The notes: generated from the letters alone by a model not told the origin. Positions 6,613-63,907 are shown, numbered from the stretch's first letter. The stretch is DNA of 64,000 bases from Oscillospiraceae bacterium (GCA_036645935.1 JAVXNE010000001.1:384660-448659); one strand, 5' to 3'. Numbers and translations: made by a program.

Positions 6613-7695
6613 ATGAGACGCCTGACACTTGCCGCCACAGCGTTTTTTCTTGCGGCAGCACTCGTATCATGTGGCAATGCTGAAATCAACAACAATCAGG
6701 ACAGCTGTGTAAATCAAAGGGGATATAATATGGCACGGGAAAATTCCGAAATATACATCGCAGGCGGATGCTTTTGGGGAACAGAGCATTTTTTCAATCA
6801 GATTGACGGGGTTATCGAAACCGAGGTCGGCTATGCCAACGGCAGCACCGATAACCCGACCTACCGCAAGGTGTGCTGCGGGGACTCGGGATTCGCTGAA
6901 ACCGTCAGGGTGGTATACGACAAAAATATAGCGCCGCTTGAATTTCTTCTCGGTTTATATTACAAAACCATCGATCCCTCAAGCATCGACCGTCAGGGCA
7001 ACGATGCCGGAACACAATATCGAACCGGCATCTACTACACCGACGAATCCAATCTTGAAATCATTGGGCAATCACTTGAAAATCTTCACGCCGCAACAGG
7101 ACAGCAAGTTGCGATAGAGGTTCAACCACTTGCGAATTTTTACCCCGCAGAGGATTATCATCAGGATTATCTGGACAAGAACCCGGGCGGTTATTGTCAC
7201 ATTGACTCGTATCTTTTCAAAGTTGCAAGAGATGCAAAATACCACGTCCCGACATTTTCAAGACCGGACAACGCTGAACTCCACAAGAAACTGACGCCCG
7301 AACAATACGCCGTGACGCAAAACGGCGCCACCGAGCGACCATTTTCCAACTGCTACTGGAATACCTTTGAAGATGGGATATATGTTGACATAACGACGGG
7401 ACAGCCGCTGTTTGTCTCGACCGACAAATTCGATTCGGGCTGCGGCTGGCCGAGCTTTTCAAAACCAATCGACAGTTCTGTCATTTCGGAAACTACCGAC
7501 AGCAGTTGCGGCATGGTGCGAACCGAGGTGAGAAGTGAAACTGGCGACGCGCATCTCGGGCACGTCTTTGATGACGGCCCGCAGCAAAACGGCGGACTGC
7601 GCTACTGCATCAACAGCGCGTCGCTGCGCTTTGTTCCAAAAAGCGAGATGTCGCGTGAGGGCTATGGCGATTGGCTCTACCTGTTCGAGCGGTGA
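6613..7695 (+). CDS. msrAB: Peptide methionine sulfoxide reductase MsrA-MsrB fusion lipoprotein
   Basis: Signal peptide with lipobox (LVSCG); MsrA GCFWG motif; MsrB GCGWPSF and RYCINSA motifs; AGAGGGGA SD before the ATG at 6613. The ORF track start at 6481 is an upstream in-frame extension. Confidence 0.85.
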
Positions 7696-7979
7696 TGTCT
7701 GTTTCGGGCTGATACAGCTCTTGTTTGGAACAAGCGGGTCTATTGGGAATATTCACAATCTCCGGCTATCGAATGGGCTTTTCCAATCGGCGGATACTCG
7801 GTCGATTTTGCGGAAAGCGACTGCGTTCGCCATGCCGTTTTACCGATTTTATCTGCTTTTTCGTTACATCAAGCACAAAATTTCCAATCAAAAAGACTGC
7901 CTCGCAAAAAATGCGCGGCAGTCTTTTGGAAATCTATAAAGCGTTGCAAAAAAGGGTGTGTCCGCACAGCTTCTTGCAT

Positions 7980-8450
7980 CTATTTTTCTTTGATATCTCC
8001 GATATCTCTATCGTTAAAAATTTCCAGCGAGAATCCCAAATCGCGGTCGGTGTCGAAATATGCCCATTTAAGACCGGGAATTGCGCGGGCAGAGCTCCCG
8101 TTCATCGACATGTGATATCCTGCGTCTTCCAGCACATGCGCCGCTTCATCGTAACTCGGAACGCTGAATTTGATATGCTGCACTCCGCTTCCCTTTTCGC
8201 GCACAAAATCCTGCCATACGCCCTCGCCATCGACCGGCTCGATAAGCTCAATTTCAATGTTTGCAAAGTGATAAATTGCGATCTTTGTCGAGCAGAAAAC
8301 CGGCCGTCCGTGGTAATATCGCGTCGAATTTGAAGAATTTAGAAATTCATCCGGCTGTGCTCCGAAAACACGCTCCATCGCCTTCATCCCGAGGTCGAGA
8401 TTGCTGACAGCTATGCCTATCTGGGATATTTCAGTAAACCTGTTTGCCAT
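7980..8450 (-). CDS. VOC-family protein (glyoxalase / methylmalonyl-CoA epimerase-like)
   Basis: About 155 aa with a glyoxalase-fold pattern. The internal start MANRF is preceded by a GGAGAAAGG SD. It is the last gene of the long minus-strand operon. Confidence 0.65.
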   Translation of the reverse strand: MANRFTEISQIGIAVSNLDLGMKAMERVFGAQPDEFLNSSNSTRYYHGRPVFCSTKIAIYHFANIEIELIEPVDGEGVWQDFVREKGSGVQHIKFSVPSYDEAAHVLEDAGYHMSMNGSSARAIPGLKWAYFDTDRDLGFSLEIFNDRDIGDIKEK

Positions 8451-8466
8451 AGAAGTCCTTTCTCCG

Positions 8467-9489
8467 CTACCTCTGGACACGACCGGAGCCGTCTCCACCC
8501 ATCAGCCGTTTGACATCGTCTACCGTGGCGAGGTTAAAATCGAACTCCATCGTCTGTTTAAGACAGGAGGCCGCAACTGCAAATTCAATCGCTTTCTGCG
8601 CGTCCATTTTGCTGATGAGCGCATAGATAAGTCCCGCGCCGAAACTGTCTCCGCCGCCCACGCGATCGACCATATGAATATCATAAGATTTGGAGTAATG
8701 CGCCTTGCCTGCAGTGTAGTACATGCCGGCCCACGCGTTGTCCGACGCGGAGCGGCTCGTGCGCAACGTGAAGGCAACCCCGTCGCAGCCGTATTTCTCC
8801 TGTATGAGGCGAGCTGTTTCGGCATAAGCTTCGGGGTCAAGTTTCCCGCTTTGCACATCGGTGCGCGGGGGCTTTATGCCGAGTGTCTTATCGGCGTCCT
8901 CCTCGTTGCCTATGATGACATCGCAGTATGACACGAGCGCCGACATAACGCGCTGGGCATTTTCGGGCGACCACAGATTTTTGCGATAGTTAAGATCACA
9001 GCTTATGCGAACACCCGCTGCTTTTGCCGCCTTGCAAGCCTCTTCGCAGATTGCGGGCATTCCGTCGCTTAGCGCGGCGGTGATTCCGGTAAAATGAAAC
9101 CACTCGGCGTTTTTGAATATCGTCTTCCAATCGTAATCCGAGCCGGAGGACATCGAGATCGATGAGTATTTGCGGTCGTAAATAACTTTGGACGGGCGCT
9201 GCGAGGCACCGCGCTCGAGGTAGTATGTGCCCATGCGATCCCCGCCGAACACCACTTCGCCCACACCCACTCCGAATTTCTTAAGCGTGGAGAGCGCCAC
9301 GCGAGAGATGTCGTTGTCCGGCAGCTTAGTGACGAAAGATGTGTCGAGTCCGAAGTTGCTCAAAGACACGCAGATGTTGGCCTCCGCGCCGGTATAATTT
9401 ATGTCAAAATTGTCCGCCTGGATAAATTTGAGATATCCTCGGGGCGCCATGCGCAGCATTATTTCGCCGAATGTGACTACTTTGCCCAT
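8467..9489 (-). CDS. kdgK: 2-dehydro-3-deoxygluconokinase (PfkB-family sugar kinase)
   Basis: MGKVVTFGEIMLR N-terminus; PfkB motifs (GGGDSF...G); length 340 aa. Confidence 0.85.
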   Translation of the reverse strand: MGKVVTFGEIMLRMAPRGYLKFIQADNFDINYTGAEANICVSLSNFGLDTSFVTKLPDNDISRVALSTLKKFGVGVGEVVFGGDRMGTYYLERGASQRPSKVIYDRKYSSISMSSGSDYDWKTIFKNAEWFHFTGITAALSDGMPAICEEACKAAKAAGVRISCDLNYRKNLWSPENAQRVMSALVSYCDVIIGNEEDADKTLGIKPPRTDVQSGKLDPEAYAETARLIQEKYGCDGVAFTLRTSRSASDNAWAGMYYTAGKAHYSKSYDIHMVDRVGGGDSFGAGLIYALISKMDAQKAIEFAVAASCLKQTMEFDFNLATVDDVKRLMGGDGSGRVQR

Positions 9490-9490
9490 C

Positions 9491-10156
9491 TTATCTTCCC
9501 TCGTTGAACGCGCTTACTATGTCGCGGAACGTCTTTGCGCGCTCGGTAAACTCACTATAGTTTCCGCTCTCGAGCACCTTGCGGTCTGTAAGTCTTCCGC
9601 TAATGCCCGCACCTATATACCCGCCATTTAGGAAATCTTTTAAGTTCTCCTCGTTTACGCCCGCCGTTGCGAGCAGCTTCACGTGGCTTATAGGTCCGCG
9701 TATATTTTTTACATAAGACAGTCCGAGGTCGATCGCGGGAAACACCTTCACAATGTCCGCGCCGCATTTGTGTGCGGCGAGAATCTCGGATGGGGTCATG
9801 GCGCCGGGAATCGACACCAGGCCGTGTTCCAGTGTGCGCGCGATAACGTCGGGGTCTGTGTTTGGCGAAATTATGTATTGCGCACCGGCATTGAACGCCG
9901 CATCCGCCTGCGCGGGAGTGAGCACTGTGCCCGCTCCTATCAGCGAATCCGACCCGAAGCGCTTGTTGAGACGCGCTATCGCGTCCGCTGTATGCACAAG
10001 ACAATCGGGATCTGATTGATCGAAGGTCACCTCAACCATGCGAAGGCCTCCCTCGTGCAGTGACTCAAACAACTTTTCGAGCTGCTCGCCGTAAATACGA
10101 CGAACTATCACAATGATTCGCTCACGCTCAATTTGAGAGATTATTGTCTGTTTCAT
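9491..10156 (-). CDS. eda: 2-dehydro-3-deoxyphosphogluconate (KDPG) aldolase
   Basis: 221 aa; family-typical IVIVRR...GAGTVL...KVFPA motifs; lies immediately upstream of kdgK. Confidence 0.85.
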   Translation of the reverse strand: MKQTIISQIERERIIVIVRRIYGEQLEKLFESLHEGGLRMVEVTFDQSDPDCLVHTADAIARLNKRFGSDSLIGAGTVLTPAQADAAFNAGAQYIISPNTDPDVIARTLEHGLVSIPGAMTPSEILAAHKCGADIVKVFPAIDLGLSYVKNIRGPISHVKLLATAGVNEENLKDFLNGGYIGAGISGRLTDRKVLESGNYSEFTERAKTFRDIVSAFNEGR

Positions 10157-10172
10157 TGGACTCTCCTCAAAA

Positions 10173-11150
10173 TTATTCTGCAGTTGCTGTGGGTATAATT
10201 ACACCCTTAATATAGCCATCCGGCTTGTTAACAAGATCCTCAAATGCTTGTCCTATCTCTGCAAGCTCGTAGCGATGAGTGATTATATCTTCCATGCGAA
10301 TTACTCCGCGCTCGAGCAGCCTAAGGCCGCGTCTCATATCCTCAATCTGATCCTCGCTGTATTTTGCGTGAGCCACGACAATCTCTGCGCTGCGCGAAAC
10401 CATCTCCCGGAAATCGAAATCCTTGCACGGGCGCTTGTGCGAACTCATGAGCACCACTCGCCCTCGGCCGGTTGTGCGCAGCAATTTCACACATTCACCG
10501 AGTATCTCCGGTATTCCCGTTCCCTCGATGACAAAGTCCGCCATATGGGCTGCGGTTGCCTCGGAAACAACTGTGGCAACGTCATCGCGCAGCGGATTTG
10601 CAGTGTGCGTCGCACCGTATTTTTGGGCGAGCGCGAGCTTGCGATCGTCGGTATCCACACACACGAGAGCGCCCAGCGAGCCCCCCGCTAGTATCTGCGT
10701 GCTCCAAAGGCCCATCGGCCCACATCCGTATATCACGCCGCAGTCTCCCGCCTTCGCGTTCGTCGCCCGCGTTACGGTTATAACGCATTTGAGCGGCTCT
10801 CCCAGCGCGTGCTCGAGCGGCATTGCGGGATCAATTTTTACGGCTCGCTCATAGTCGACGACGGCGTAGTCCGCAAATCCTATGTAGACGGGCATCGCGA
10901 CAACATGATCTCCAACCGAGAAGCCCTTGACCTCCTCGCCCATGGCAGCGACCGTGCCCGCCCATTCGTGCCCAAGCGGCTGAGGACAGCTTCCGACAAT
11001 TCCGTGATAGTGATTAATCTCCCAGTTGCACAGCCCGCACACAGCCACTTTAACGAGCAGCTCGCGCGGCGCTGGCTTTACGTCATCTTTAATAAGCTCA
11101 AATCTTCCCGGCTCAGCCAATATGGCCCGTCTTGTAATCAATGCATACAC
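10173..11150 (-). CDS. Zinc-dependent alcohol/polyol dehydrogenase (MDR family)
   Basis: CGLCNWEINHYHG zinc-binding signature and a GxGxxG Rossmann segment (GCGPMG). Confidence 0.8.
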   Translation of the reverse strand: MYALITRRAILAEPGRFELIKDDVKPAPRELLVKVAVCGLCNWEINHYHGIVGSCPQPLGHEWAGTVAAMGEEVKGFSVGDHVVAMPVYIGFADYAVVDYERAVKIDPAMPLEHALGEPLKCVITVTRATNAKAGDCGVIYGCGPMGLWSTQILAGGSLGALVCVDTDDRKLALAQKYGATHTANPLRDDVATVVSEATAAHMADFVIEGTGIPEILGECVKLLRTTGRGRVVLMSSHKRPCKDFDFREMVSRSAEIVVAHAKYSEDQIEDMRRGLRLLERGVIRMEDIITHRYELAEIGQAFEDLVNKPDGYIKGVIIPTATAE

Positions 11151-11171
11151 CTCGTGTTAATAAATGCTCCG

Positions 11172-12287
11172 TCAGTCAAGAACTCCAGTTTTCAGAGAGT
11201 TTACCATCGGCGCAGGCCGCTCGTACTGGCTCTCAAGCACAATCTTCTTGCCCTGCTCCGAGCTTTTAAGAATCGATTCAATTATCTCTATCGTATGAGA
11301 GGCAGCCTGGCCGTTTGCCCGAGCAGCGCGGCCTGTTCTCATTGCCCGACACATATCTGAAATTCCGAGCCCTCGGCTGTTTTCGGAATATCCGAACATG
11401 AACGGCATTTCAAGCCATTCGCCGCGCTCGGGACGATAAAGCAGAATGGGGGTTCCTCCAAAACAGTTTGGATCGGGCACACTGATTGAACCCTCCGATC
11501 CATATATCTCTATAAAGGGCAACCGCGCCTTGTGAACGTCAAAAGTCATTGTGAGCGTTCCGAGCGCACCGCTGTCAAACTCAAGCAGCGAGTTCACATA
11601 GGTTGGAACATTTACCTCGATCGTCTCTCCGAAGTGGGGCTGCGAGGTTATCACGCGTTGTTTAAATGAAATTCCTGCCTGCCCACTGACAGTCTTAATT
11701 CGTCCCATCATCTGCAGCAAGGTTCCTATATAGTAAGGTCCCATATCGAGCAAGGGACCTGCCCCCGGCTGGTATAGAAAATTGGGATTCGGATGCCAGG
11801 TCTCAACGCCGCGCTTAATGAGGTTCGCCGTGCAGCCGACTATCTCGCCAATCGCACCGCCGTCTATGAGCTTGCGGCATGTCTGCACTGCAGCACCCAG
11901 CACAGTGTCCGGCGAGCTGCCCACATAAAGACCGCGCACCGCCGCAATTTCAAGCAGTTCGCGTGTTTGCGCATATTGTGCCGCAAGCGGTTTTTCCGAA
12001 TAAACGCTTTTGTTTGCAAGCAGCGCTTTTTTGTTTATATCGTAGTGCAGCAGCGGGGGGCACAGATCGAGAATGACTTCAATCTGATCATCCTCGAGCA
12101 TTTCGTCATAGCTGCTGTATTGGCAGGGCAGGCCATATTCATCGGTCTTTTTCTGTGCGAGAGCGCCGTTAGTGTCACAGACACCCACCACTTTTACTTC
12201 CTTGAACAGCGAAGTTAGATTTTTGAGATATATATCGCTGATCGTCCCGCATCCAACGACACCTATCCCCATGATGCTGTTTTCCAT
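11172..12287 (-). CDS. Gfo/Idh/MocA-family NAD(P)-dependent oxidoreductase
   Basis: N-terminal GIGVVGCGTIS Rossmann fold and the EKP motif (SEKPLA) typical of the family. Confidence 0.8.
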   Translation of the reverse strand: MENSIMGIGVVGCGTISDIYLKNLTSLFKEVKVVGVCDTNGALAQKKTDEYGLPCQYSSYDEMLEDDQIEVILDLCPPLLHYDINKKALLANKSVYSEKPLAAQYAQTRELLEIAAVRGLYVGSSPDTVLGAAVQTCRKLIDGGAIGEIVGCTANLIKRGVETWHPNPNFLYQPGAGPLLDMGPYYIGTLLQMMGRIKTVSGQAGISFKQRVITSQPHFGETIEVNVPTYVNSLLEFDSGALGTLTMTFDVHKARLPFIEIYGSEGSISVPDPNCFGGTPILLYRPERGEWLEMPFMFGYSENSRGLGISDMCRAMRTGRAARANGQAASHTIEIIESILKSSEQGKKIVLESQYERPAPMVNSLKTGVLD

Positions 12288-12289
12288 AG

Positions 12290-12991
12290 CTACTCTCCTA
12301 AATATGCCTTGACTATGCGCGGGTCTCTTATCATATCGCGCGAATTTCCCTGCATGGTCACTTTTCCGTTTTCAAGCACATAGGTATAATCGCTGCTTTG
12401 CAGCGCCTGCTTGGCGTTTTGCTCGATCAAAAGAACCGTCACTCCAGAGGCATTGATCTCTCTGATAAACTTGAACACCTGCTTGATAATAACGGGAGCG
12501 AGACCCATCGAAGGCTCGTCGAACATAATAAGCTGGGGATTCGCCATCATTGCACGTGCAATTGCAAGCATCTGCTGCTCGCCGCCGGAAAGCGTGCCTC
12601 CCTGCTGCTTTTTTCGCTCGCGAAGTATCGGAAAGAGTTTGTAAGCAACCTCAAAATTCTCTTTTGCCTGACGAAGGCCATTGACGGCTCCCATTATCAG
12701 GTTTTCCTCAACGGTTAGTCCATCGAATATTTTGCGCCCTTCTGGAACCTGAGCCACTCCCTTTTTGACGACCTTATCGGGAGACATAATCAAATTCTCT
12801 CCCTGCAGCGTGATGCTGCCCGACTTGGGCTTTACCATTCCAGATATAGTGTTGAGCAGTGAGCTTTTACCTGCGCCGTTCGCGCCGATGACACTCACAA
12901 TTTTGCCTTGCTCGACGTCAATGGAAACGCCGTTGAGTGCGCTGACGTGACTGTAGCTCACTTCGAGATCGCGTACTTCAAGAAACGCCAT
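12290..12991 (-). CDS. livF: ABC transporter ATP-binding protein, LivF type
   Basis: Walker A GANGAGKSS; LSGGEQQML signature; 233 aa, as for LivF. Confidence 0.85.
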   Translation of the reverse strand: MAFLEVRDLEVSYSHVSALNGVSIDVEQGKIVSVIGANGAGKSSLLNTISGMVKPKSGSITLQGENLIMSPDKVVKKGVAQVPEGRKIFDGLTVEENLIMGAVNGLRQAKENFEVAYKLFPILRERKKQQGGTLSGGEQQMLAIARAMMANPQLIMFDEPSMGLAPVIIKQVFKFIREINASGVTVLLIEQNAKQALQSSDYTYVLENGKVTMQGNSRDMIRDPRIVKAYLGE

Positions 12992-13759
12992 CTATTCGTC
13001 CTCCCCCATGTAAGCGTCGATGACATCCTGGTTGGTCTGTATCTCGGCAGGTGTGCCCTCAGCAATAAGCTCGCCGAAGCTGAGCACATAAACCTTTTTA
13101 GAGAGCGAATACACAACCTGCAGGCGATGCTCGATAAGCAGCACCGTCACGTCAAAGCGCTCGCGAATGTCGCGGATCAACGCTATAAACTCATCCACCT
13201 CTGTGGTGTTAAGACCTGCCGCGGGTTCGTCGAGCAGCAACAACTTCGGTTCGGTTGCAAGAGCCCTTGCAAGCTCGAGCTTGCGCTGCATTCCGTACGG
13301 AAGATTGGAGGGCTTCTCGTTCCTGTAGTCGTAAAGCCCAACTATCTTCAGATATTCCTCACTTCGCATGACATTTGCTTTGTCTGTGCTCCGCGCCGAA
13401 GGAAGGCGCAACAGCGCCTCAAGAATATTGTATTTTGCCCGCGCATCGAGCACAGCCTGCACGTTTTGGCAGACACTCAATCCCTGATAGAGCCGAATAT
13501 TCTGAAAGGTTCTCGTAAGACCCAGGTGTGATATTTCGTGCTGTGGCTTTCCTGTGATATCGACACCTTCAAGAGATATCTTTCCTGATGTGGGCTTGTA
13601 AATGCCCGAAATCATATTAAAAACTGTGGTTTTTCCGGCTCCGTTTGGTCCTATGATGCTGGTTATGCTGCCTTTTTCGACCGAGAGGTTCACTTCGCTT
13701 ACAGCTTTAACACCGCCGAAGCTTATGGACAAATTGCTGATATCAAGAATGCTGCTCAT
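12992..13759 (-). CDS. livG: ABC transporter ATP-binding protein, LivG type
   Basis: Walker A GPNGAGKTT; signature LPYGMQRKLELARAL; 255 aa. Confidence 0.85.
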   Translation of the reverse strand: MSSILDISNLSISFGGVKAVSEVNLSVEKGSITSIIGPNGAGKTTVFNMISGIYKPTSGKISLEGVDITGKPQHEISHLGLTRTFQNIRLYQGLSVCQNVQAVLDARAKYNILEALLRLPSARSTDKANVMRSEEYLKIVGLYDYRNEKPSNLPYGMQRKLELARALATEPKLLLLDEPAAGLNTTEVDEFIALIRDIRERFDVTVLLIEHRLQVVYSLSKKVYVLSFGELIAEGTPAEIQTNQDVIDAYMGEDE

Positions 13760-14658
13760 TCTTTTCCGCCCTCCTTGTCGCCATTCTTCGAGCGCAGTTT
13801 TTTGAAAATCGACGAGAAAAATTTCCCTATTTTTTTGAATATGTCGGTTATCTCAAGCTCTCCAAACAGACCTTTAGGCATGAAGTTGATGATCAAGAGC
13901 ACCGTGACGCAGTAGATAACGATGCGCAAATTATCGGTGAAGCGCAGAAACTCCGGCAATATATTCAGCAGCACGCCGGCTGTTATCGTTCCCGACAGGC
14001 TGTTAACTCCGCCAATGAACACCATGATTATCCATTCGATTGACTTCTTGGTGGCGAAAGCGTTCGGCTCAACATAGGTTGTGAGATATGCCCACAGCGC
14101 GCCTCCGAAGGCGGTGATGCCCCCACAGAACACAAATGCAAGCGTCTTGACCTTTTGCACGTTGATGCCCATTGCGGCGGCTGATATCTCATCGCTCTTG
14201 ATCGCGAGGCACTGTCTGCCAAATTTAGAGCGCTTGAAATTCAGCACAATAAATATGACTGCGGCAAGCGAAATCGTTGCGATGAATACCGTCGTCTTGC
14301 GCGGTATACCGTTGAGACCCAAAGAGCCGCCCGTAAACTTTGTGGCCGTGTTGAGCAGCGCGACGATTGCCTCGCCAAATGCCAGCGTCACAAGCGCTAT
14401 ATAGTCTCGCCTTAGCTTGATGACCGGCATGGCAACGCCCCACGCAACGAGCATTCCTATAATTATGGCGACGATAATATTCACTATCATCGGCGTTCCG
14501 ACACGCAGGCACATGAGGCCGGCTGCATAAGCGCCCACCGACATGAACGAAGCCTGTCCCATCGAGAATATTCCCGTGAGGCTGATGAGCACGAACATCG
14601 AAAGAACGCCGATCAACGAAACGCACATCGAAACATAAATTGAGGAGTAATATGACAT
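13756..14658 (-). CDS. livM: Branched-chain amino-acid-type ABC permease, LivM type
   Basis: Polytopic membrane protein. The ATG at 14658 is preceded by an AAGGGGGGAG SD; the track start at 14721 is an upstream extension. Confidence 0.75.
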   Translation of the reverse strand: MSYYSSIYVSMCVSLIGVLSMFVLISLTGIFSMGQASFMSVGAYAAGLMCLRVGTPMIVNIIVAIIIGMLVAWGVAMPVIKLRRDYIALVTLAFGEAIVALLNTATKFTGGSLGLNGIPRKTTVFIATISLAAVIFIVLNFKRSKFGRQCLAIKSDEISAAAMGINVQKVKTLAFVFCGGITAFGGALWAYLTTYVEPNAFATKKSIEWIIMVFIGGVNSLSGTITAGVLLNILPEFLRFTDNLRIVIYCVTVLLIINFMPKGLFGELEITDIFKKIGKFFSSIFKKLRSKNGDKEGGKE

Positions 14659-14672
14659 TATAAGCTCCCCCC

Positions 14673-15548
14673 TTAAACCTTTTCGTAGGTGAATTTGCCT
14701 GCAATACCCTGCGGTCTCCAAATGAGGAAGATAACCGTGAGGAAGAAGATGACAACTGTGCTGTAACCGGATCCCACAATATATACGAGGAAGACCTCCG
14801 TTACTCCCAGCAACAGTCCTCCGTAAAGCGCTCCGGAGATGTTTCCTAGCCCTCCGACAATCGAAGCCGTGAGTCCCTTAAAGACCATGTTCGAAAGCTG
14901 AGGATAGAGCACATAACGGATACCGAGGAAAACTCCGGCGATTGCTCCGAGCATTCCGGACATGAAGAAGCACATGAATACGATGAGGGAAACGTTGATT
15001 CCCATGAGACGCGCAGTGCTCGAATCCATCGACAGAGCCCTGATAGAAACGCCCAGCCTCGTTTTATAGAGCACAAGCATTAATATAACAATCAGCACCG
15101 CAGAAATTACCAGCATGATGGTATCGGTGACGGTAATTGTGAAATTTCCTATTTCAAAATATGCTTTTTCAAAAAAGGTGGGATACGAATAGTAGTTGTT
15201 TGAAAAGCGAATCGCCATGAGATTCTGAAGCAGCGTACCGAGCGTTGATGACGCGACAAAGAACAGCATTATCTCTCCGTTGTTCTTGCGCAGACGCTCA
15301 AACCCGATGACCTGACAGACTGCCGAAACAACCCCGCCAAAGATAGCGGTTATCGCGAGTGTTGGAAACAGGCCCAGTCCGTATGATTTTGATATGATAT
15401 ATCCGAAATATGCCGACGTGACCATCACGCCGCCGTGCGAAAAGTTTGAAAACTTCAAGACGCTATATATAAGCGTGAAGCCCAACGATATGAGCGCGTA
15501 CACTGAGCCGAGAGACAGCCCGTTAATCAGCAGTTGGATAATATTCAA
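14673..15548 (-). CDS. livH: Branched-chain amino-acid-type ABC permease, LivH type
   Basis: MNIIQLLINGLSLGSVYALISLGFTLIY is a classical LivH N-terminus. Confidence 0.8.
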   Translation of the reverse strand: MNIIQLLINGLSLGSVYALISLGFTLIYSVLKFSNFSHGGVMVTSAYFGYIISKSYGLGLFPTLAITAIFGGVVSAVCQVIGFERLRKNNGEIMLFFVASSTLGTLLQNLMAIRFSNNYYSYPTFFEKAYFEIGNFTITVTDTIMLVISAVLIVILMLVLYKTRLGVSIRALSMDSSTARLMGINVSLIVFMCFFMSGMLGAIAGVFLGIRYVLYPQLSNMVFKGLTASIVGGLGNISGALYGGLLLGVTEVFLVYIVGSGYSTVVIFFLTVIFLIWRPQGIAGKFTYEKV

Positions 15549-15564
15549 GCCTTACACTCCCTTC

Positions 15565-15596
15565 GGGGATTTATCCCCCCTTCGAAAAGGGGGGAT
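15565..15596. promoter_or_regulatory. GC-rich stem-loops (two mutually exclusive hairpins sharing ATCCCC) between the binding-protein gene and livH
   Basis: ggggat-tt-atcccc overlaps atcccccctt-cgaa-aaggggggat. It is intercistronic within an operon, so probably a partial terminator or mRNA stabiliser that sets binding-protein versus permease stoichiometry. Confidence 0.4.
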
Positions 15597-15621
15597 ACCC
15601 GGTCTCTGATATTGCGACGGC

Positions 15622-16833
15622 TCAGTTAAAGAGCGTCGGGGTGTATATCCCGCCGTTGCTGAGAACGCCGTTTTCGATCTTGCAAACGGCCATGCTCATT
15701 CCAACGGGAGCGTGCGTTGTCGGGCTCTGGGTGTATCCCTTAACGCCCACGAGGTCGAGGTTGTTGATGTTGTTCTCAACTGCGTAGCGGATGGACTCGG
15801 CATCGGCCTTGCCGTCCATCGATTCGATGGCAGCCTTGATGATGTAAACCATCTCATAACCTTGAACGGTCTTAACTGTCGCGTCCTCGCCGATAATCTC
15901 TTTGTAAAGCTTGCAATAATCTGCCAGCGCGGGATCGCCCATCCAGGCTACGGCGTGGAAATAAGCTTCCTTAACGATTGTGGGATCGTCAAGCAGTGAC
16001 AGGAACGGGTCGGCCATGTCCATTGCTCCCAGAAGAGGAATCTCAAGACCAATCTGACTGGCCTGCTGAACGATAAGCACACAGTTAGGTGTGGTGTTGG
16101 GCATGAAGAGTATCTCGGCGCCGCTGTCCTTAATCTTCTGAAGCTGGGTTTTGAAATCCGATTCGCCGGTCTGGAAGGTGACGGAGCTGACTATCTCGCC
16201 GTCGATTTTCTTCCAAGCCTCGTCGAAACTGTTGGCCATTATCGTCGAATAGGAGTTGGACGCGTCATAGAACATCGCAGCTTTGGTCAAGTTGAGCTTG
16301 CTCTTGGCATAGTCTGCGCAGAACTCTGCCTGCGAGATGGCGTTGGGCTGAGTGCACAGGAACATCGCAGGATAGGGTGTCTTTGTTTTGAGGTCTTGTG
16401 TAACGTTCGGGTCGGAGGGAACGCACAGGACGGAAACGCCCTTTTCGGTGCTGACCTCGACGAGTGACATGCATATCGTGCTGCTCGGGGGTCCGATTAC
16501 CGCAACGGCCTTGTCGACGTCGACCAGGCGGTTGTAGGAGTTAATGGTCTGGGTTGCGTCGTTCTGGTTGTCGTAGGAAATATACTTGATCTGACGGCCG
16601 TTAATTCCGCCGGCCTTGTTAATTTCCTCAACAGCCACCAGTGCGCCGTTATCGACAGCGGTTCCGAGAACAGAGCCGTCGCCGGAAAGATCGTTGACGC
16701 CGCCGATGATGATTGGTCCCTCGTCGGACACAGGGGCTTTTTCTCCCTCCGGGGTGGTCTCTGATTTGCCGCATGCCGCAAACAGACTCAGACAGAGCAC
16801 AAGAACAAGAACAATTGACAGATACTTTTTCAT
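15622..16833 (-). CDS. ABC substrate-binding lipoprotein, LivJ/LivK-like (family 4 SBP)
   Basis: Lipoprotein signal (LFAACGKS); periplasmic binding-protein fold pattern; located upstream of livHMGF. Confidence 0.8.
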   Translation of the reverse strand: MKKYLSIVLVLVLCLSLFAACGKSETTPEGEKAPVSDEGPIIIGGVNDLSGDGSVLGTAVDNGALVAVEEINKAGGINGRQIKYISYDNQNDATQTINSYNRLVDVDKAVAVIGPPSSTICMSLVEVSTEKGVSVLCVPSDPNVTQDLKTKTPYPAMFLCTQPNAISQAEFCADYAKSKLNLTKAAMFYDASNSYSTIMANSFDEAWKKIDGEIVSSVTFQTGESDFKTQLQKIKDSGAEILFMPNTTPNCVLIVQQASQIGLEIPLLGAMDMADPFLSLLDDPTIVKEAYFHAVAWMGDPALADYCKLYKEIIGEDATVKTVQGYEMVYIIKAAIESMDGKADAESIRYAVENNINNLDLVGVKGYTQSPTTHAPVGMSMAVCKIENGVLSNGGIYTPTLFN

Positions 16834-16889
16834 TTTTTGCTCCTTTCAGCATTTTTAATAACAAAAGTTTCCTTTTGCAATTATTGAGT

Positions 16890-18083
16890 TTAGAATATTC
16901 CTTTTTCTTTCAGTTCGGAGATCTGTTCCGGAGTGTATCCCAGCTCCCCCAGTATTTCATCGTTGTGCTCGCCGAGCAATGGAGGCCGTCTCGTTATCTT
17001 GCAAGGCGTTTCGCTGAATTCGATAGGGGATCCAATCACACGAACCTTTCCCGCCTTGGGATGATCGATCTCTTGAATAATTCCGTTGTGTATAACTTGC
17101 GGATCGTTGACCACATCGTTGTAGTCGTTAACCTTAGCGCACCATATGCCCTGAGCGCGGAACATCTCTATCCACTCGTCAGTTGTGCGTTTCGCGATAG
17201 CCGAGGATATAACAGGGTATATCTTGTCGCGGTCGCGCCGCATGGTTTCTTTATCGGGCATAAGTTGCGGCAGCTCGGGTATTTCGAGCGCCTGCGCGAA
17301 CCATTCGATATTGTCTGAGGCATTGGTGGCGAGCGACATATAGCCGTCTTTAGTCTCATATATGCCGTATGGCGATTCCTGCATCGGGTGTCCTGTATGT
17401 CCACCAGGGCGCTCCGGCTGTATGCCGGTGTTTAGGAAATATCCGAACTCCTGCGACTGCAGATGGATTCCGGAATTGAGAAGGTTTACTTCAACCTTCT
17501 GTGCCTTTCCGCCGTTTTGCTTATTGACGAGAGCCGCGAGCACGCCGCTCACCATCAACATCGAGCTGTACATATCCACCACGTAAATACCACCGGTCAT
17601 CGGCGGTCCTTTGGGTCCTACCATCCATGTGTAGCCGCTCATGCTCTGCGCGAGCAGATCCTGCCCGGGCAAATTCGAGTAGGGGCCTGAACTGCCATAA
17701 CCGAGCGCCTCACAGTAGATGATCTGATCGTTCACCTTTTTGCCGTCTTCAAACCCTATGCCGAGCTTGTCAATTACACCGGGTCGGTAGTTGGACATGA
17801 CCACGTCGCACTCTTTAATGAGATCGTATACAATCTGCTTCGACTCAGGCTTTTTAAGATCAAGTGTCATGCTGCGCTTGTTTCGGTTCATCGCGAGAAA
17901 GAACGGACCTTCACCGCCCAGTTTATCCGTTGCCAAAAATGAACGGTTGAAGTCTCCTGTCCTCGGTCGTTCGATGTTGATGACGTCCGCACCCATATCT
18001 CCGAGCAATTGCAGAGCAAACGGAGCCTGTGCAAAATGCGTGAAACCCAGTATCTTTATTCCTTTAAGCGGACCGGGCATCAT
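16890..18083 (-). CDS. CoA transferase family III (CaiB/BaiF-like)
   Basis: N-terminal GIKILGFTHFAQAPFALQLLGDMGADVI matches the family III CoA-transferase signature; 397 aa. Confidence 0.85.
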   Translation of the reverse strand: MMPGPLKGIKILGFTHFAQAPFALQLLGDMGADVINIERPRTGDFNRSFLATDKLGGEGPFFLAMNRNKRSMTLDLKKPESKQIVYDLIKECDVVMSNYRPGVIDKLGIGFEDGKKVNDQIIYCEALGYGSSGPYSNLPGQDLLAQSMSGYTWMVGPKGPPMTGGIYVVDMYSSMLMVSGVLAALVNKQNGGKAQKVEVNLLNSGIHLQSQEFGYFLNTGIQPERPGGHTGHPMQESPYGIYETKDGYMSLATNASDNIEWFAQALEIPELPQLMPDKETMRRDRDKIYPVISSAIAKRTTDEWIEMFRAQGIWCAKVNDYNDVVNDPQVIHNGIIQEIDHPKAGKVRVIGSPIEFSETPCKITRRPPLLGEHNDEILGELGYTPEQISELKEKGIF

Positions 18084-18541
18084 TCCGCCCCCTTTGGCTT
18101 GCGGCCGATGTACTGTTTGTCGATATGAAAGAGCACTGCCTCACCCTTCTGGTTCTTGACGGTGACATCCCATGACACGATACCGAACTCATCGTTCTTT
18201 ATCTTCTTATCGGTCACCTTGAACTCGCAGTGAATTGTGTCGCCGGGATACACAGGTTTGATATACCTCACCTTGTCATGGCCGTAATGCACTGACGGAA
18301 CTTTGGTCGGAGAGACTTCCTTGGCCATGAAGGCATCGGCGACTCCGAGCGTCAGCACACCCTGAACAATGGGGCGGCCGATTGCCGGGAATTTCGCGCA
18401 GTACTCGGCGTCAACGTGCACCGGATGGGTGTTGTCTGAGCAGCCGATAAAAAGTCTGATGTCGGCCTCCGTCATAGTGCGCCCCGATGTTACCTGTTCC
18501 TCGCCTAACTCATAGTCCTCAAAATACTTATACTCTGGCAT
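18080..18541 (-). CDS. MaoC-like (R-specific) enoyl-CoA hydratase/dehydratase, hotdog fold
   Basis: 153 aa; hotdog-fold MaoC pattern; ATGA overlap with the downstream CoA-transferase gene. Confidence 0.8.
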   Translation of the reverse strand: MPEYKYFEDYELGEEQVTSGRTMTEADIRLFIGCSDNTHPVHVDAEYCAKFPAIGRPIVQGVLTLGVADAFMAKEVSPTKVPSVHYGHDKVRYIKPVYPGDTIHCEFKVTDKKIKNDEFGIVSWDVTVKNQKGEAVLFHIDKQYIGRKPKGAE

Positions 18542-18596
18542 TGGTTGCAGCTCCTTTCAAGCCTTAATTAATTGCGTCTGTCTTCTGACTTTTAAA

Positions 18597-19964
18597 TTAT
18601 ATTTCGCCGTCAAATCTTTTCGGCATGAGCACATTCTGGTTGCGAAGACGTGCGCGTATCTCTTTAGTATCGACGTCGCGCAGCGGCTTGCCCTCCCTCA
18701 CCGCAATCGCAGCAGCTATTCCGCAAGCCTGTCCCATCAGCATTGCGGTCGGTATGACGCGAAGCATCTCTATTGCTCCAAAATCTCCCGAAATGCAACG
18801 TCCCGCGACGAGCAGACCATCTGTTTTCTTGGGAAGAAAACAGCGATATGGAATTTCCTTGAAACTATCGCTCGGGCTAAACTGCTGATACGGAGGTTGC
18901 GCCATCACAACGGCATCGTCATATTTGGTGCCGGCAAGCAGTTCCTTTCGGGTGATCGTGTATTCTCCGCAAAGCATCCTTGTGCTGCGAACCCCAACTT
19001 GAGGTGCCGTATCCATCACATAGGCTTTCTCAAATCCCGCAACATTCTCGCGGAAATAATCCACCGTGATCAACATTTTGCGACGGGTTTCGATCTCCAC
19101 CTTAGCGAGATCTTCAATTTTAACTCCGTCCCCTTGCATAGTAGTGTTAAACCACACGACGTCCGGTATGCTGCTGCGCATATAGAATCCTTGCGGCAAT
19201 ATGCCAAAGCTGTATCCGCCGCCCACTCCGCCAATGCGCTTGAGGTCACCCGAGACCGCTTGTGCGACGCCTTCCCTGCGAAGATATTCCTCCGCTTTTT
19301 CGGTGTCCACACCGCACACGCGGAACACCAGTCCGAGTGGCAGATTGCCCGTGGTGAAATCCTCGCCGGCCGTCACGAATACGTCTCCATCTCCGGTGCA
19401 GTCGATAACCGTCTTGCTGAGCACGGCAAGCCTTCCGGACTTGCTCTCGAAAATCGCGCCCTTTATCGTTCCGTCCTCAACATATGCTTTGCTGAACCAC
19501 GCGTGGAACAACGGCTTGACTCCCGCCTCAACGATCATGTCGTTAGCGACACATTTCCACATCTCCGGATCGGCAACAGGACTGTATCTGACAACCTTGT
19601 CCTCGCCACCCGTTGCTCCCCAGCGCCGCCATTTAAGAATATCCTCAGCTTTGTCAGAGCCCCAGACTTGCCGGGGAGGCTCGATAATTCCGTCGTATTT
19701 TCTCAGCCGTTCGATTGTCTCCTCTACCAGTCCTCTGATGACGACGCTTCCGCTGCCGTCGCACAGGCAGTCGATGAGCAACACATACCCGCCTGTACCC
19801 ATACCGCCCAGATAGCCGTATCTTTCCATCAGGACCACCGAAGCTCCCTCGCGAGCGGCGCTCACCGCGGCGCAATAACCGGCCGGGCCTCCGCCGACAA
19901 CGAGCACATCTGCCTCGGCGTAAACAGGTATTTTCTGTTCTCTTTCAACAATATGCTTGACCAA
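18597..19964 (-). CDS. FAD-dependent oxidoreductase (likely TTG start)
   Basis: Dinucleotide-binding motif VLVVGGGPAGYCAAVSAA at residue 19. The first codon is TTG, preceded by GGAGAG. It is the first gene of the operon. Confidence 0.7.
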   Translation of the reverse strand: MVKHIVEREQKIPVYAEADVLVVGGGPAGYCAAVSAAREGASVVLMERYGYLGGMGTGGYVLLIDCLCDGSGSVVIRGLVEETIERLRKYDGIIEPPRQVWGSDKAEDILKWRRWGATGGEDKVVRYSPVADPEMWKCVANDMIVEAGVKPLFHAWFSKAYVEDGTIKGAIFESKSGRLAVLSKTVIDCTGDGDVFVTAGEDFTTGNLPLGLVFRVCGVDTEKAEEYLRREGVAQAVSGDLKRIGGVGGGYSFGILPQGFYMRSSIPDVVWFNTTMQGDGVKIEDLAKVEIETRRKMLITVDYFRENVAGFEKAYVMDTAPQVGVRSTRMLCGEYTITRKELLAGTKYDDAVVMAQPPYQQFSPSDSFKEIPYRCFLPKKTDGLLVAGRCISGDFGAIEMLRVIPTAMLMGQACGIAAAIAVREGKPLRDVDTKEIRARLRNQNVLMPKRFDGEI

Positions 19965-20061
19965 TTCCGTCTCTCCCTTGCTGCCTCATCCGATACCCTT
20001 CCGCACACCGTGCGGATTATTTCTCAAATGCCGCAGAATGCAATGTAATGGAATGTATTGT

Positions 20062-20083
20062 ATCGTGTAATGGTTTACACGAT
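20062..20083. promoter_or_regulatory. Candidate LacI-family operator palindrome (atcgtgtaa-tggt-ttacacgat) plus an extended -10 (tgctataat, about 20113-20121) in the divergent promoter region
   Basis: Perfect 9-bp inverted arms of the TGTAA..TTACA type, which resembles LacI/CcpA-family operators. It lies between the operon start (19964) and the regulator gene (20352). Confidence 0.4.
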
Positions 20084-20351
20084 AATAGCAAATCGTTTAC
20101 TTACTTGCAACAGATTCTGCTATAATCTACATAATGACGGATTTTATGTCACGTAGTATAGCAACTTTAACAATAAAATTTCAATATTCGACTCTGCAAC
20201 CCTTTCAATTATTATCTTTGATGCATTGTTCTCCACAACTGTGTAATCTGATACATCTCTGGATATTCCGACAAATTACGAGGTTGACTTATTGTGTTTG
20301 TGGGGTATAATTGTAACAACACGTAACAATATTGCTAATATGAGGTAATTT

Positions 20352-21359
20352 ATGAATATAAGGGACGTTGCCGTGCTGGCAGAGACATCTACCGCAACCG
20401 TTTCACGAGTGATCAACGAAGACCCTCACGTATCCGAAGAGATACGAAAAAAGGTGCTCGAGGTCGTCGAGCTTACCGGATATAAGCCAAATCTTGTGGG
20501 AAAGGCACTTCGCACGCAGAAGAGCGGAAAACTGCTCGTTTTGCTTCCCACTATACAAAATCCGTACTATTCTCGTGTTTTGCAGGGCGTTGAGCAGTCG
20601 GCGAGCGTACAGGGTTATGACACAATCATCGCAATAACCCACCGCGATCCCGAAATTGAAAAGCGATATTTGATACTCGCAAGCACAAAACAGGTGGATG
20701 GCGTAATTACGTTTACCTCTGCGTGTTCCGACGAGGACGTGCTGAATTACAGCCATCAGTTCCCTGTCGTGCAGTGCGGCGCATCGTCCACAATGGTGAG
20801 CTGCGCGTGCATTGACAACGTCAAGGCAAGCTATGAGGCCACCGAATATTTGCTGCATCTGGGCAACAAGCGCATAGCTCTGCTAAAAGGTCCATATGGC
20901 CGCGCCTATGAGGTCGAACGCGAAAACGGATATCGCTACGCTCTGCTCGACAACGGTCTTCAGGTAAATCAGGCCTATATTGTTCCATGCGACTACAGCT
21001 ACACCGACGGGTTCGACTGCTGCGATGAGCTTATGAAGCTGCCCGAGCCGCCCACCGCGATTTTCACGTCATACGACCTTTCCGCTGCCGGAGCAATAAA
21101 GAAGCTGCTCAAACTGGGACTTGTTCCGGGAAAAGACGTGGACGTCATCGGATTTGACGGGACGTACATAAGTGCGATGTACTCGCCCGACATAACCACC
21201 GTCGAGCAGCCCGGATATGAACTGGGTAAGGCCGCGCTGTCACTGCTGCTGGAAAAGATAGACAATCCCGATTCGATGGTTAAGAAGATCATCATGTCTC
21301 ACAAGCTCACCATTCGCGAAAGCACTAAGTCGCTCCCACCGGCCGAAAGCACAGTCTGA
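20352..21359 (+). CDS. LacI-family transcriptional regulator
   Basis: N-terminal HTH MNIRDVAVLAETSTATVSRVIN followed by a periplasmic-binding-protein-like effector domain; 335 aa. Confidence 0.85.
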   Translation: MNIRDVAVLAETSTATVSRVINEDPHVSEEIRKKVLEVVELTGYKPNLVGKALRTQKSGKLLVLLPTIQNPYYSRVLQGVEQSASVQGYDTIIAITHRDPEIEKRYLILASTKQVDGVITFTSACSDEDVLNYSHQFPVVQCGASSTMVSCACIDNVKASYEATEYLLHLGNKRIALLKGPYGRAYEVERENGYRYALLDNGLQVNQAYIVPCDYSYTDGFDCCDELMKLPEPPTAIFTSYDLSAAGAIKKLLKLGLVPGKDVDVIGFDGTYISAMYSPDITTVEQPGYELGKAALSLLLEKIDNPDSMVKKIIMSHKLTIRESTKSLPPAESTV

Positions 21360-21462
21360 TTGCAAAGTTCTACATGCGTTTTTTTGAACTTATGCAATCT
21401 GTGACTGTTCGTGTGGGCAGCGGTTTCATAAGCTGCCGGCGTACCGAGCAAAATACTGTAAC

Positions 21463-21524
21463 CCAAAAAAAATCCGCCATCTCAATGGGTTGAAGACACC
21501 CATTGAGATGGCGGATTTTATATG
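21463..21524. terminator. Bidirectional rho-independent terminator
   Basis: A8 run, a perfect 19-bp stem (atccgccatctcaatgggt / acccattgagatggcggat) with a 7-nt loop, then a T-run. It sits between the convergent regulator and Hpt genes. Confidence 0.65.
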
Positions 21525-21714
21525 CTTGTTTTGGCGGTGCTGTTTTTAAAAGCCTGCTGGATTTCCTTGTTTCCATAAGTCGCCCTTGCAAACGGCAGAC
21601 ACCACGCGAGACACAGCGGTGAGCTTTTCTTGTCCAATTCACAAGTTCCAAAACCTGCACGGTTTTTATGATTTTTCAGCTCATCTGTTTTTTAGCCGCC
21701 TGAACACCCACGCG

Positions 21715-22059
21715 TCACCGCTGCAATTGTCCCAGCTTGTCCAGTTGCGCAATTACCTCTGTGTAGCATCTCTGCAAGCCTGAATATTCCTTGTTCCTCA
21801 GTTTTTCAACTATGGTGCAGATCACCCGGCTGAGAGGGGTGAGTCCCATATTGCCCGAAACGCCTTTCAGCGTATGTGCGCATTCAAATGCTTTCTCATA
21901 ATCTGTGGCAGACAATGCCTCCCCCAGCTTGAGAAAGGCCTCGTCTTTTAAAAATGCTGTGTAACAGGTTTTGTATAAGTCAACATCGTCCATAAAGCGA
22001 TTCATCGCTCCATCCACATCCGCGCCGTAATCCTTTAGCTCTTCCATCAATTCATCCAT
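21715..22059 (-). CDS. Histidine phosphotransfer (Hpt) domain protein
   Basis: HTLKGVSGNMG matches the Hpt HxxKG...G phospho-histidine motif; 114 aa, all-helical pattern. Confidence 0.75.
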   Translation of the reverse strand: MDELMEELKDYGADVDGAMNRFMDDVDLYKTCYTAFLKDEAFLKLGEALSATDYEKAFECAHTLKGVSGNMGLTPLSRVICTIVEKLRNKEYSGLQRCYTEVIAQLDKLGQLQR

Positions 22060-29193: not shown

Positions 29194-29371
29194 GTCCACA
29201 CCTCTAATGTTGAATTCCGCACGCAATCCGGCACAATTGCCGCAAGGCTTTTGGACTAAAGCTTTTTTTGACCACTCTCGAGCTCCCTGCAACTTCCAAA
29301 TATCGCGCAGCGCCCGCACCCCGTGCCGACACCGTTTTTGATGATTAACCTACACGCCGGAATACTGAAAA

Positions 29372-45108: not shown

Positions 45109-45116
45109 TTTTTACC

Positions 45117-46601: not shown

Positions 46602-46626
46602 ATTCACCTCATGTTTCGTGAAAAAA

Positions 46627-48117: not shown

Positions 48118-48127
48118 AGGCTCGGTT

Positions 48128-60192: not shown

Positions 60193-60515
60193 AAGCGCTC
60201 CTTTCGTTATTGACGGAAGCTGAGTGTGGTATGGTGGAATATTAACAATATTATTATATATTGTTGAAACAATTTTGTTAATGTGCTGCCGCTATCAATT
60301 TTTGTGCTTTTCTTGTCCGCGCGCCCTCGGCCGTCCTCATCCTCTTGTGGTTTTATTGTAATGTGTTTATATAACAACAAGAGTCGCGCTTAACAGCACA
60401 TACTGACACCTGCGAACTATCGGGGCAGCACACTCGCTCGGGCGCATCGATGCAACTGCGTGTTTTTGAGTGGCCGCCGCATCTTTTCGCTATCTCGGAC
60501 GGAGCAGAAAGGGAA

Positions 60516-61712: not shown

Positions 61713-61905
61713 AATATCACCCCACTTTTGAGCAAAGTAGTTTGTGCTTTTATCTCTTGTTTTGATTATAACACAATTTTAAGAAAATATTATACAATTT
61801 TGCAACTGCTTCTCGAAGTAAAATCTGCAAAAAAAAACGTCCTGCCTCGGGTTGCCACGAGACCGAACGTCAGACATATTAACTGGATGTCATATTTAAA
61901 TATTG

Positions 61906-63722: not shown

Positions 63723-63907
63723 GGCTTCTCCTCCAGTTTGTGGCAGCTGCGACCGCGTTACCGCGAATGTCAGTTGCCGCGCCGCTTGGGCTCCACGCGA
63801 CCTCGACGCTTTGAGTCGTCGCCGTGCGTTTTCCAACTTCACCCGCTTGTACTTGATTCGTGCTTTTACACCGTTCCATTTTAGGGCTGTTCACTGCTCT
63901 CTGGTCT

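Follow-up and report, generated by a model that had tools for sequence, protein, structure and literature searches.

A predicted LacI-repressed operon joining CoA-thioester enzymes to a 2-keto-3-deoxy sugar acid lower branch in an Oscillospiraceae bacterium

We analysed 64,000 nucleotides of the genome of an Oscillospiraceae bacterium (GCA_036645935.1, JAVXNE010000001.1:384660-448659; this whole stretch is referred to below as the window), which contain 13 closely packed genes divergent from a gene encoding a LacI-family regulator. On balance, we favour the interpretation that LacI represses these genes as a single operon, whose products take up and degrade a hydroxy-carboxylate, with a C6 sugar acid as the most probable candidate. 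The operon encodes a Liv-type ABC importer, a coenzyme A (CoA) module composed of a PF12831 flavoprotein, an atypical MaoC-fold (de)hydratase and a family III CoA-transferase, and an Eda-type pyruvate aldolase with a PfkB-family kinase of the type that acts on 2-keto-3-deoxygluconate (KDG). As judged from the predicted proteins, what would be new is the joining of a usual sugar-acid lower branch to an upper branch made of CoA-thioester enzymes.

Linkage of the CoA module to aldolase and kinase genes

Loci related to the window operon were gathered by exact look-up of homologues of its substrate-binding protein (SBP), by scanning a genome collection with an SBP alignment and by scanning metagenomes with a MaoC alignment. 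Open reading frames (ORFs) in these loci were labelled by BLASTP against the window proteins and from Pfam-annotated neighbours, loci with MaoC proteins at least 93% identical were collapsed into one lineage (lineages and their loci are numbered with the prefix L below) and co-occurrence was counted only where at least 7.5 kb of downstream flank was present. MaoC, the CoA-transferase and an importer form an invariant core in 15 genome loci and 63 further metagenomic loci, spanning approximately 27 lineages of Clostridia and Synergistales. The module is common in uncultured Oscillospiraceae, Christensenellales-like Clostridia and Synergistales, and the names of the records indicate human, mouse and other animal gut; a single cluster of the flavoprotein alone comprises 219 sequences.

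Two types of locus share this core. Type A, which includes the window, adds the PF12831 flavoprotein together with a pyruvate aldolase and a kinase. Type B has a FrdA-like flavoprotein of 650-700 aa, a short-chain dehydrogenase/reductase (SDR), a different LacI and often an AroE-family dehydrogenase. The aldolase and kinase are present in 12 of the 12 flavoprotein lineages with sufficient flank but in none of the five FrdA-like/SDR lineages. The initial annotation had proposed that the CoA and KDG-type genes are combined in one pathway and had suggested comparative genomics of the operon as a check; this recurrent association, which persists even where unrelated families stand in for the aldolase, the kinase or the transporter, bears the proposal out.

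Eda and PfkB are the aldolase and kinase in 10 lineages. A DHDPS-family aldolase with DhaK/DhaL occupies the Eda-PfkB position in L104 and L109, and L098 instead encodes DhaK and an aldolase of the HpcH/HpaI family whose nearest match is 2-keto-3-deoxy-L-rhamnonate aldolase. This non-orthologous replacement appears to us the strongest evidence that the CoA and KDG-type modules are linked. The importer has likewise been exchanged, for TctCBA of the TTT family in L104 and L105 and for a sugar-type ABC system in L101 and L095 (in L095 together with a more distant MaoC), and these replacements suggest a carboxylated, sugar-like substrate rather than an amino acid. The minimal operon, found in L105, reads flavoprotein-MaoC-CoA-transferase-TctC-MFS-TctB-TctA-Eda-PfkB, with LacI ahead of it. 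An uninterrupted run of genes read in a single direction is seen in the window and likewise in L011, L019, L007, L101, L105, L109, L013 and L020. No gene for UxuA/UxaA, IlvD/Edd or an enolase-superfamily dehydratase was found in the window operon or in L001, L007, L008, L091, L095, L101, L104, L105 and L109. Because of the 12/12 versus 0/5 distribution and the non-homologous replacements, we consider it highly probable that these genes serve a single pathway that ends with a pyruvate aldolase.

Type B loci were recognised in L014 (C. asparagiforme NZ_CP102272, 350642-371853), L022, L023, L110, L115, L139 and L148. An epimerase-like TIM-barrel protein is encoded there as well, and the AroE-family dehydrogenase is found in some of them (L014, L022, L139). 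L014 belongs to a cultured organism, Enterocloster asparagiformis DSM 15981; the flavoprotein-type loci retrieved all come from metagenome-assembled genomes. They may represent a reductive (electron-sink) version of the pathway. On two contigs, one holding L102 and L110 and the other L103 and L115, both variants lie back to back with two MaoC paralogues, indicating that one organism can possess both. We also observed, in L132-L138, L154 and L156, a MaoC of 55% identity accompanied by a crotonase, an SDR, a CoA-transferase, a Zn-type dehydrogenase and a TRAP DctP binding protein, a set that looks like a further, beta-oxidation-like relative of the module.

Operon anatomy and the LacI operator

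The 13 ORFs run on the minus strand from 19964 to 7980 with gaps of no more than 73 bp and several overlaps of 1-4 bp, and their families were assigned by Pfam and NCBIfam profile searches, for the Liv permeases and ATPases in the identical source contig (Table 1). Every operon gene named in the initial annotation was confirmed at its coordinates, on the minus strand, as was the divergent LacI; its list had omitted the thirteenth gene, which encodes a VOC/glyoxalase-fold protein. There is a single promoter-like site on the operon strand, which abuts a palindrome, and a single terminator at the end of the operon, 3′ of the last gene (dG -30.1 kcal/mol, z -7.6; none of 200 shuffled sequences folds as well). 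No conspicuous internal terminator was seen (18 terminator-like matches compared with 16.2 expected). A search for riboswitches and leader RNAs gave no Rfam match in 7000-22000, and the fold of the 5′ untranslated region of the operon was non-significant (z -1.75). Tight packing, one promoter-like site and one end terminator support the earlier view of a single LacI-controlled unit, and the sequence fits one LacI-repressed operon of 13 genes. Between the end of lacI and an Hpt gene (21715-22059, minus strand) lies a very strong terminator with a 20-bp stem (21471-21517); it shields the operon region from genes for a hybrid histidine kinase and GGDEF-EAL proteins located upstream (22554-29319). 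The identical locus is also present in the metagenome-assembled genome (MAG) GCA_036642875.1, partial sequences carry the label Oscillospiraceae, and a Candidatus Pelethousia MAG is the nearest relative; a sortase gene near the operon fits a Gram-positive organism.

Table 1. Operon genes, regulator and predicted control sites in the window
Feature	Coordinates	Strand	Remarks
Intrinsic terminator closing the operon	7878-7935	-	hairpin followed by U-run
VOC/glyoxalase-fold protein, last operon gene, accessory	7980-8450	-	PF13669, 50.8 bits; weak methylmalonyl-CoA epimerase match
PfkB sugar-acid kinase, KDG-kinase-like	8467-9489	-	PF00294; GGGD motif present
Eda-type class I pyruvate aldolase (KDPG/KHG aldolase)	9491-10156	-	PF01081, 116 bits
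Medium-chain Zn-type dehydrogenase, accessory	10173-11141	-	catalytic Cys and His-Glu ligands kept
Gfo/Idh/MocA NAD(P)-dependent oxidoreductase, accessory	11172-12287	-	Pfam/NCBIfam
LivF	12290-12991	-	ABC_tran
LivG	12992-13759	-	ABC_tran and BCA_ABC_TP_C
LivM	13756-14658	-	BPD_transp_2
LivH	14673-15548	-	BPD_transp_2
Lipoprotein SBP, Peripla_BP_6 (family 4)	15622-16833	-	PF13458, 188.6 bits; lipobox LFAAC
Family III CoA-transferase	16890-18083	-	PF02515, 363.8 bits, profile positions 1-366 of 366
Atypical MaoC-fold (de)hydratase	18080-18541	-	PF01575, 78.8 bits
PF12831 FAD-dependent oxidoreductase	18597-19964	-	TTG start, GGGAGA Shine-Dalgarno
Predicted operator O1	20061-20084	.	perfect palindrome TATCGTGTAA-TGGT-TTACACGATA; core TGTAA-N4-TTACA at 20066-20079
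Operon promoter-like site	20082-20110	-	TTGCAA-17-TATTAT, TG extension; -10 box abuts/overlaps O1
Candidate second operator O2	20242-20255	.	TGTAATCTGATACA, 1 mismatch, 176 bp from O1
lacI promoter-like site	20284-20311	+	TTGACT-16-TATAAT, 11/12 matches; consensus-scan match only
LacI-family repressor, divergent from operon	20352-21359	+	PF00356 helix-turn-helix and Peripla_BP_1/3

The regulator scores 57 bits against PF00356, 121.6 against PF00532 and 95.5 against PF13377, and orthologues with 41-78% identity lie at the equivalent position in most related loci. The 387-bp intergenic region between lacI and the operon contains a predicted operator, O1, whose palindrome is perfect, as the initial annotation had claimed, with arms of 10 nt in place of the 9 given there. 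At the sequence level this is a palindromic site of the TGnAA...TTnCA type at the operon promoter, as seen for repressors of the LacI/GalR family. Its core occurs once in the 64 kb, compared with 0.05 expected (5 of 100 shuffled sequences hold one copy or more), and the exact core recurs 32-128 nt upstream of the first operon gene, just past the -10-like box, in eight related lineages (that of the window, L011, L007/L108, the L012 group, L013/L020, the L018 group, L019 and L021). The core is missing from the type B loci, where LacI is another paralogue (31-33% identity), and from L112, where the regulator is of the IclR type; the motif tracks the LacI orthologue. Allowing up to one mismatch, it was not found in L099, L101, L104, L105, L109 and L113, whose LacI repressors (41-54% identity) probably recognise diverged sites.

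A catabolite-responsive element (cre) bound by CcpA was considered in place of a local operator and rejected, since the central CG of such an element is here a variable dinucleotide (GG, CT, AG, CC); the motif, moreover, vanishes with other regulators. The candidate second operator of the window, O2, is statistically non-significant when taken alone. Comparable sites with one mismatch lie 179-181 bp from O1 in L011, L012/L015 and L017 and 164 bp from it in L021, and this O1/O2 pairing may serve repressor-mediated DNA looping across the divergent promoters. L007 carries a further operator copy, with one mismatch, ahead of its distal genes.

Proposed pathway, substrate and rival readings

Among the enzymes of the operon, MaoC is the most conserved protein of the system, with 67-92% identity compared with 47-55% for the binding protein, and its motif CSDNTHPVHVD is invariant in 15 aligned orthologues. 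When it is aligned to PaaZ, 1Q6W and 4FFU, with the hydratase-2 catalytic motif D-x-N-P-x-H as the reference, His42 matches the catalytic His, and the column of the catalytic Asp is occupied by Asn37, with Asp36 adjacent. SUGCT is the best solved relative of the CoA-transferase (251 bits), which falls below all NCBIfam equivalog cut-offs, scoring 235 against a cut-off of 442 for formyl-CoA, 227 against 750 for succinate-glutarate, 209 against 700 for mesaconate and 138 against 413 for carnitine. The structural neighbours of the flavoprotein are C=C reductases; a more distant relative, P0225 (45% identity), has an uninformative gene context. The aldolase narrowly passes TIGR01182 (156.4 against 156.05) and retains the lysine of VKVFPA, which we take to be the Schiff-base catalytic residue. 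For the kinase, the match to the kinase half of the NF041633 aldolase/kinase fusion family reaches 529 bits (cut-off 700) and that to the best KDG/KDGal kinase model 216, short of its equivalog threshold of 440; the protein is a PfkB member closest to KDG kinases, for which KDG is a candidate substrate. The importer has the complete HAAT (LivJ/HMGF) composition, with a Peripla_BP_6 SBP, two permeases of the BPD_transp_2 family and a pair of ATPases, of which one carries BCA_ABC_TP_C. The solved structures most closely related to the SBP are amino-acid binders, with matches no stronger than 1e-29, and the SBP scores 77.9 against the NCBIfam LivJ model (cut-off 477).

In the pathway that we propose, the Liv-type ABC system would import the acid and the family III CoA-transferase would form its CoA thioester, with CoA probably passed on from the product of the previous turnover in a CaiB-like manner. 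The thioester would acidify the alpha-proton, and the atypical MaoC would eliminate the beta-hydroxyl, or another beta-leaving group, to yield a 2-keto-3-deoxy acid. With an aldonyl-CoA, elimination would directly give the enol of this acid; with a uronyl-CoA, it would lead through a 4,5-unsaturated uronate to a 4-deoxy-5-keto-uronate, and one reduction would then give 2-keto-3-deoxy-hexonate. The PF12831 flavoprotein would contribute one two-electron step, for which reduction of a carbonyl or a C=C bond and preparation of the substrate are the options. PfkB would phosphorylate the 2-keto-3-deoxy-hexonate and Eda would release pyruvate and glyceraldehyde-3-phosphate, while the Gfo, Zn-type dehydrogenase and VOC proteins would act as lineage-specific helpers in redox, isomerisation and epimerisation.

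Since each of three unrelated pyruvate aldolases comes with a kinase of the type that uses either a 2-keto-3-deoxy-hexonate or a triose, the upstream enzymes are expected to deliver a 2-keto-3-deoxy acid, and a split into pyruvate and a C3 aldehyde implies a C6 skeleton. The pathway intermediate is most likely a 2-keto-3-deoxy-hexonate, cleaved to pyruvate and a triose. That a CoA-dependent beta-elimination produces it has, in our estimate, about an even chance. By analogy with CaiB/CaiD, we propose that the CoA-transferase and MaoC substitute for a sugar-acid dehydratase. The broader idea, that these two proteins constitute a thioester-dependent sugar-acid dehydratase replacing the metal-dependent ones in many gut anaerobes, with the PF12831 flavoprotein as redox partner, is offered tentatively; the leaving group could then possibly be methanol from 4-O-methyl-glucuronate. 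The acidic-sugar or amino-sugar-acid substrate class envisaged in the initial annotation is compatible with these data. Mass balance would favour a C6H10O7 compound, a hexuronate or keto-aldonate, which needs one dehydration and one reduction to reach KDG, but as the actual substrate this class must be regarded as doubtful. Three further schemes were considered and set aside: if the beta-hydroxyl were removed reductively, as in Cai, a 3-deoxy-aldonate or 4-deoxy-uronate would result and not a 2-keto acid; opening the ring of shikimoyl-CoA by beta-oxidation would yield C7 diacids, with no role left for the kinase; and glucarate would give tartronate semialdehyde, which is unsuited to PfkB or Dak.

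Several observations weigh against the sugar-acid pathway. With Asn at the position of the catalytic Asp, ordinary hydratase chemistry is not guaranteed for MaoC. The proposed chemistry is also incomplete, since dehydration of an aldonyl- or uronyl-CoA needs no flavoprotein, yet the flavoprotein is the component most closely tied to the aldolase and kinase. Relatives of the SBP at ~40% identity adjoin O-demethylase and enoate-reductase genes, and type B loci keep the MaoC/CoA-transferase/importer core without aldolase or kinase and with an AroE-type dehydrogenase nearby, which hints at a hydroaromatic acid. In such a scheme quinate, shikimate or a related cyclohexane carboxylate would be processed as its CoA ester, with MaoC hydrating the ester, the flavoprotein and Gfo-type dehydrogenases carrying out oxidations and reductions, and the ring being opened to fragments that reach the aldolase. 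It could draw on the link of the SBP relatives to phenolic-acid genes, on AroE-family dehydrogenases that pass TIGR00507 and lie divergent beside MaoC in the flavoprotein-less L014, L022, L128, L129 and L139, on inositol-like blocks (Gfo, Gfo and two xylose-isomerase-fold proteins) in L013, L020, L091, L095 and L113, on the resemblance of the gene sets around the 55%-identity MaoC relatives (crotonase, SDR, Zn-dehydrogenase) to alicyclic ring-opening sets, and on the C=C reductases neighbouring the flavoprotein in structure. However, the AroE gene is absent from all flavoprotein-type loci, there is no conserved ring-cleaving hydrolase or thiolase, and a crotonase occurs only in L007, as a split gene. 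A C7 acid is, moreover, incompatible with the pyruvate and C3 aldehyde implied by the Dak kinases, and with the conserved enzymes we could connect neither shikimoyl-CoA nor quinoyl-CoA on paper to a 2-keto-3-deoxy acid that ends in CH2OH. We regard a hydroaromatic substrate as improbable.

An amino-sugar acid such as D-glucosaminate, imported by a Liv-type binder, seems to us very improbable. It would pass to KDG and ammonia by beta-elimination from a 2-amino-3-hydroxyacyl-CoA, or else be deaminated by the flavoprotein; this chemistry would be feasible, and the solved amino-acid binders nearest to the SBP agree with it. Yet other lineages import by TTT or sugar-type ABC systems, a deaminase or RidA-like gene is absent and the regulators (LacI, IclR and GntR-FCD) belong to types that usually go with sugars and sugar acids. 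The SBP also has many invariant polar residues (Asn, Asp and Gln), which may point to a polyol ligand. Least probable of all, in our judgement, is fortuitous adjacency, in which an organic-acid CoA/importer module merely lies beside a generic KDG kinase/aldolase module that serves other hexuronate pathways. Apart from the lack of aldolase and kinase in the FrdA-type sister loci, this explanation has in its favour a further point against the sugar-acid pathway, namely that in L012, L015, L017, L018, L120, L122 and L125 Eda-PfkB is divergent and stands beside an AraC-type regulator, with no LacI-type site. The initial annotation had named separate transcription units, with promoters and regulators of their own, as the finding that would speak against it; the arrangement of Eda-PfkB in those lineages qualifies the proposal in this respect. 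In the window there is no internal terminator. Co-regulation is therefore not universal, whereas physical linkage is. Chance adjacency also fits poorly with the co-occurrence counts, with the one-direction contiguity in the window and eight other loci and with the presence of two other, unrelated aldolase/kinase pairs at the same position.

Accessory genes, known systems and significance

The three accessory proteins of the window are best seen as lineage-specific redox, isomerase or epimerase helpers of the proposed sugar-acid pathway. The Gfo protein, which among solved structures comes closest to the C-glycoside 3-oxidase DgpA with a match of only 3e-17, is encoded in 7 of the first 15 loci, with another Gfo type substituting in others. 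The medium-chain dehydrogenase lacks the structural-zinc loop, is ~25 residues shorter than typical members and is encoded only in the window and L011. The VOC protein, possibly an epimerase or isomerase, also has an orthologue in L011, and L007, L013 and L020 encode a small protein with a sub-threshold Glyoxalase_4 match (23.4 bits, cut-off 27; one of two members). In their place, other lineages may have different Gfo types, blocks in which two Gfo proteins are combined with two of the xylose-isomerase fold, or a YghZ-like aldo-keto reductase with a YhcH-family protein. In one lineage (L012 and L017, 3791-5315; L116, L121 and L122), lacI appears to be co-transcribed with genes for the YghZ-like reductase and a YhcH/YjgK/YiaL-family protein. 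This reductase scores 451.9 against the L-glyceraldehyde-3-phosphate reductase cut-off of 448, which hints that the aldolase of the YghZ-bearing lineage releases an L-configured triose phosphate. L101, one of the lineages with a sugar-type ABC importer, has a gene for a thiamine diphosphate-dependent enzyme of the acetolactate-synthase-like superfamily after Eda-PfkB (6706-8367).

Elsewhere in the window, two minus-strand clusters were noted. The one at 58975-63842 encodes a UPF0261 protein, a protein in which a PEP-hydrolase-like domain is joined to an AraC-type helix-turn-helix domain, a PHP-domain protein and a class II fructose-bisphosphate-type aldolase; it is unusual to see an enzyme-like domain fused with a regulator. 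At 44089-49105 there are two tandem paralogues of the MBOAT family of membrane acyltransferases, and behind each of them comes a protein of ~330 aa that matches no Pfam family.

A mechanistic parallel is the enterobacterial carnitine pathway, in which CaiB is the CoA-transferase, CaiD the dehydratase and CaiA the flavoprotein reductase. Both systems encode together a family III CoA-transferase, a beta-hydroxyl (de)hydratase acting on the CoA ester and a flavoprotein, presumably with recycling of CoA. Unlike Cai, the system described here uses a MaoC fold rather than a crotonase and a PF12831 protein rather than an acyl-CoA dehydrogenase, and its product would be cleaved by an aldolase and not excreted. 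The CoA-transferase scores 137.7 against the NCBIfam CaiB model (cut-off 413), and neither a CaiD-type crotonase nor CaiA was recognised; the system plausibly works like Cai without being a member. Itaconate and mesaconate degradation (Ict, Ich, Ccl) likewise pairs a family III CoA-transferase with a MaoC-type hydratase, but the matches to succinyl-CoA:mesaconate transferase (209 bits) and RipB/Ich (50 bits) are weak and far below the cut-offs, the CitE-type CoA-ester lyase is missing here and the HpcH protein of L098 is of the free-acid aldolase type.

At its lower end, the operon resembles the lower hexuronate and semi-phosphorylative Entner-Doudoroff branches (KdgK with KdgA/Eda) in its adjacent PfkB kinase and Eda aldolase. 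It differs from them in that UxaC/UxuB/UxuA, KduI/KduD and gluconate dehydratase are all absent, CoA enzymes being present instead. Non-phosphorylative routes through 2-keto-3-deoxy acids include the archaeal KDG aldolase and the fungal D-galacturonate pathway with a DHDPS-type aldolase. L104 and L109 are similar to these in having a DHDPS-family aldolase and a triose (Dak) kinase where the window has Eda and PfkB; the window arrangement differs, and the upstream dehydratase would be replaced by the CoA-transferase and MaoC. In Thermotoga, myo-inositol is converted to KDG by IolG, IolM, IolN and IolO, followed by UxaB/UxaA, KdgK and KdgA. The Gfo, Zn-type dehydrogenase and xylose-isomerase-fold proteins weakly match IolG, IolM, IolO and IolE, and both routes end in a KDG-type kinase and an aldolase. 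However, these matches (1e-15 to 1e-37) are below the cut-offs, the genes concerned are accessory and lineage-specific, and the importer and CoA enzymes have no counterpart in the inositol route.

Full-text literature searches turned up no account of this combination of genes, no function assigned to PF12831 and no CoA esters of C6 sugar acids, nor any match for the system under shikimoyl- or quinoyl-CoA or 4-O-methylglucuronate catabolism; to our knowledge, the only CoA-dependent sugar-acid route described is that for 2-deoxyribonate. Pathway-prediction tools based on the classical dehydratases would overlook the system. If the proposed pathway is correct, it would constitute a third way to 2-keto-3-deoxy sugar acids, would provide functions for the atypical MaoC subfamily and, for the first time, for the orphan PF12831 flavoprotein family, and would bring to light a nutrient of the gut for which present genome-based prediction does not recognise the users.

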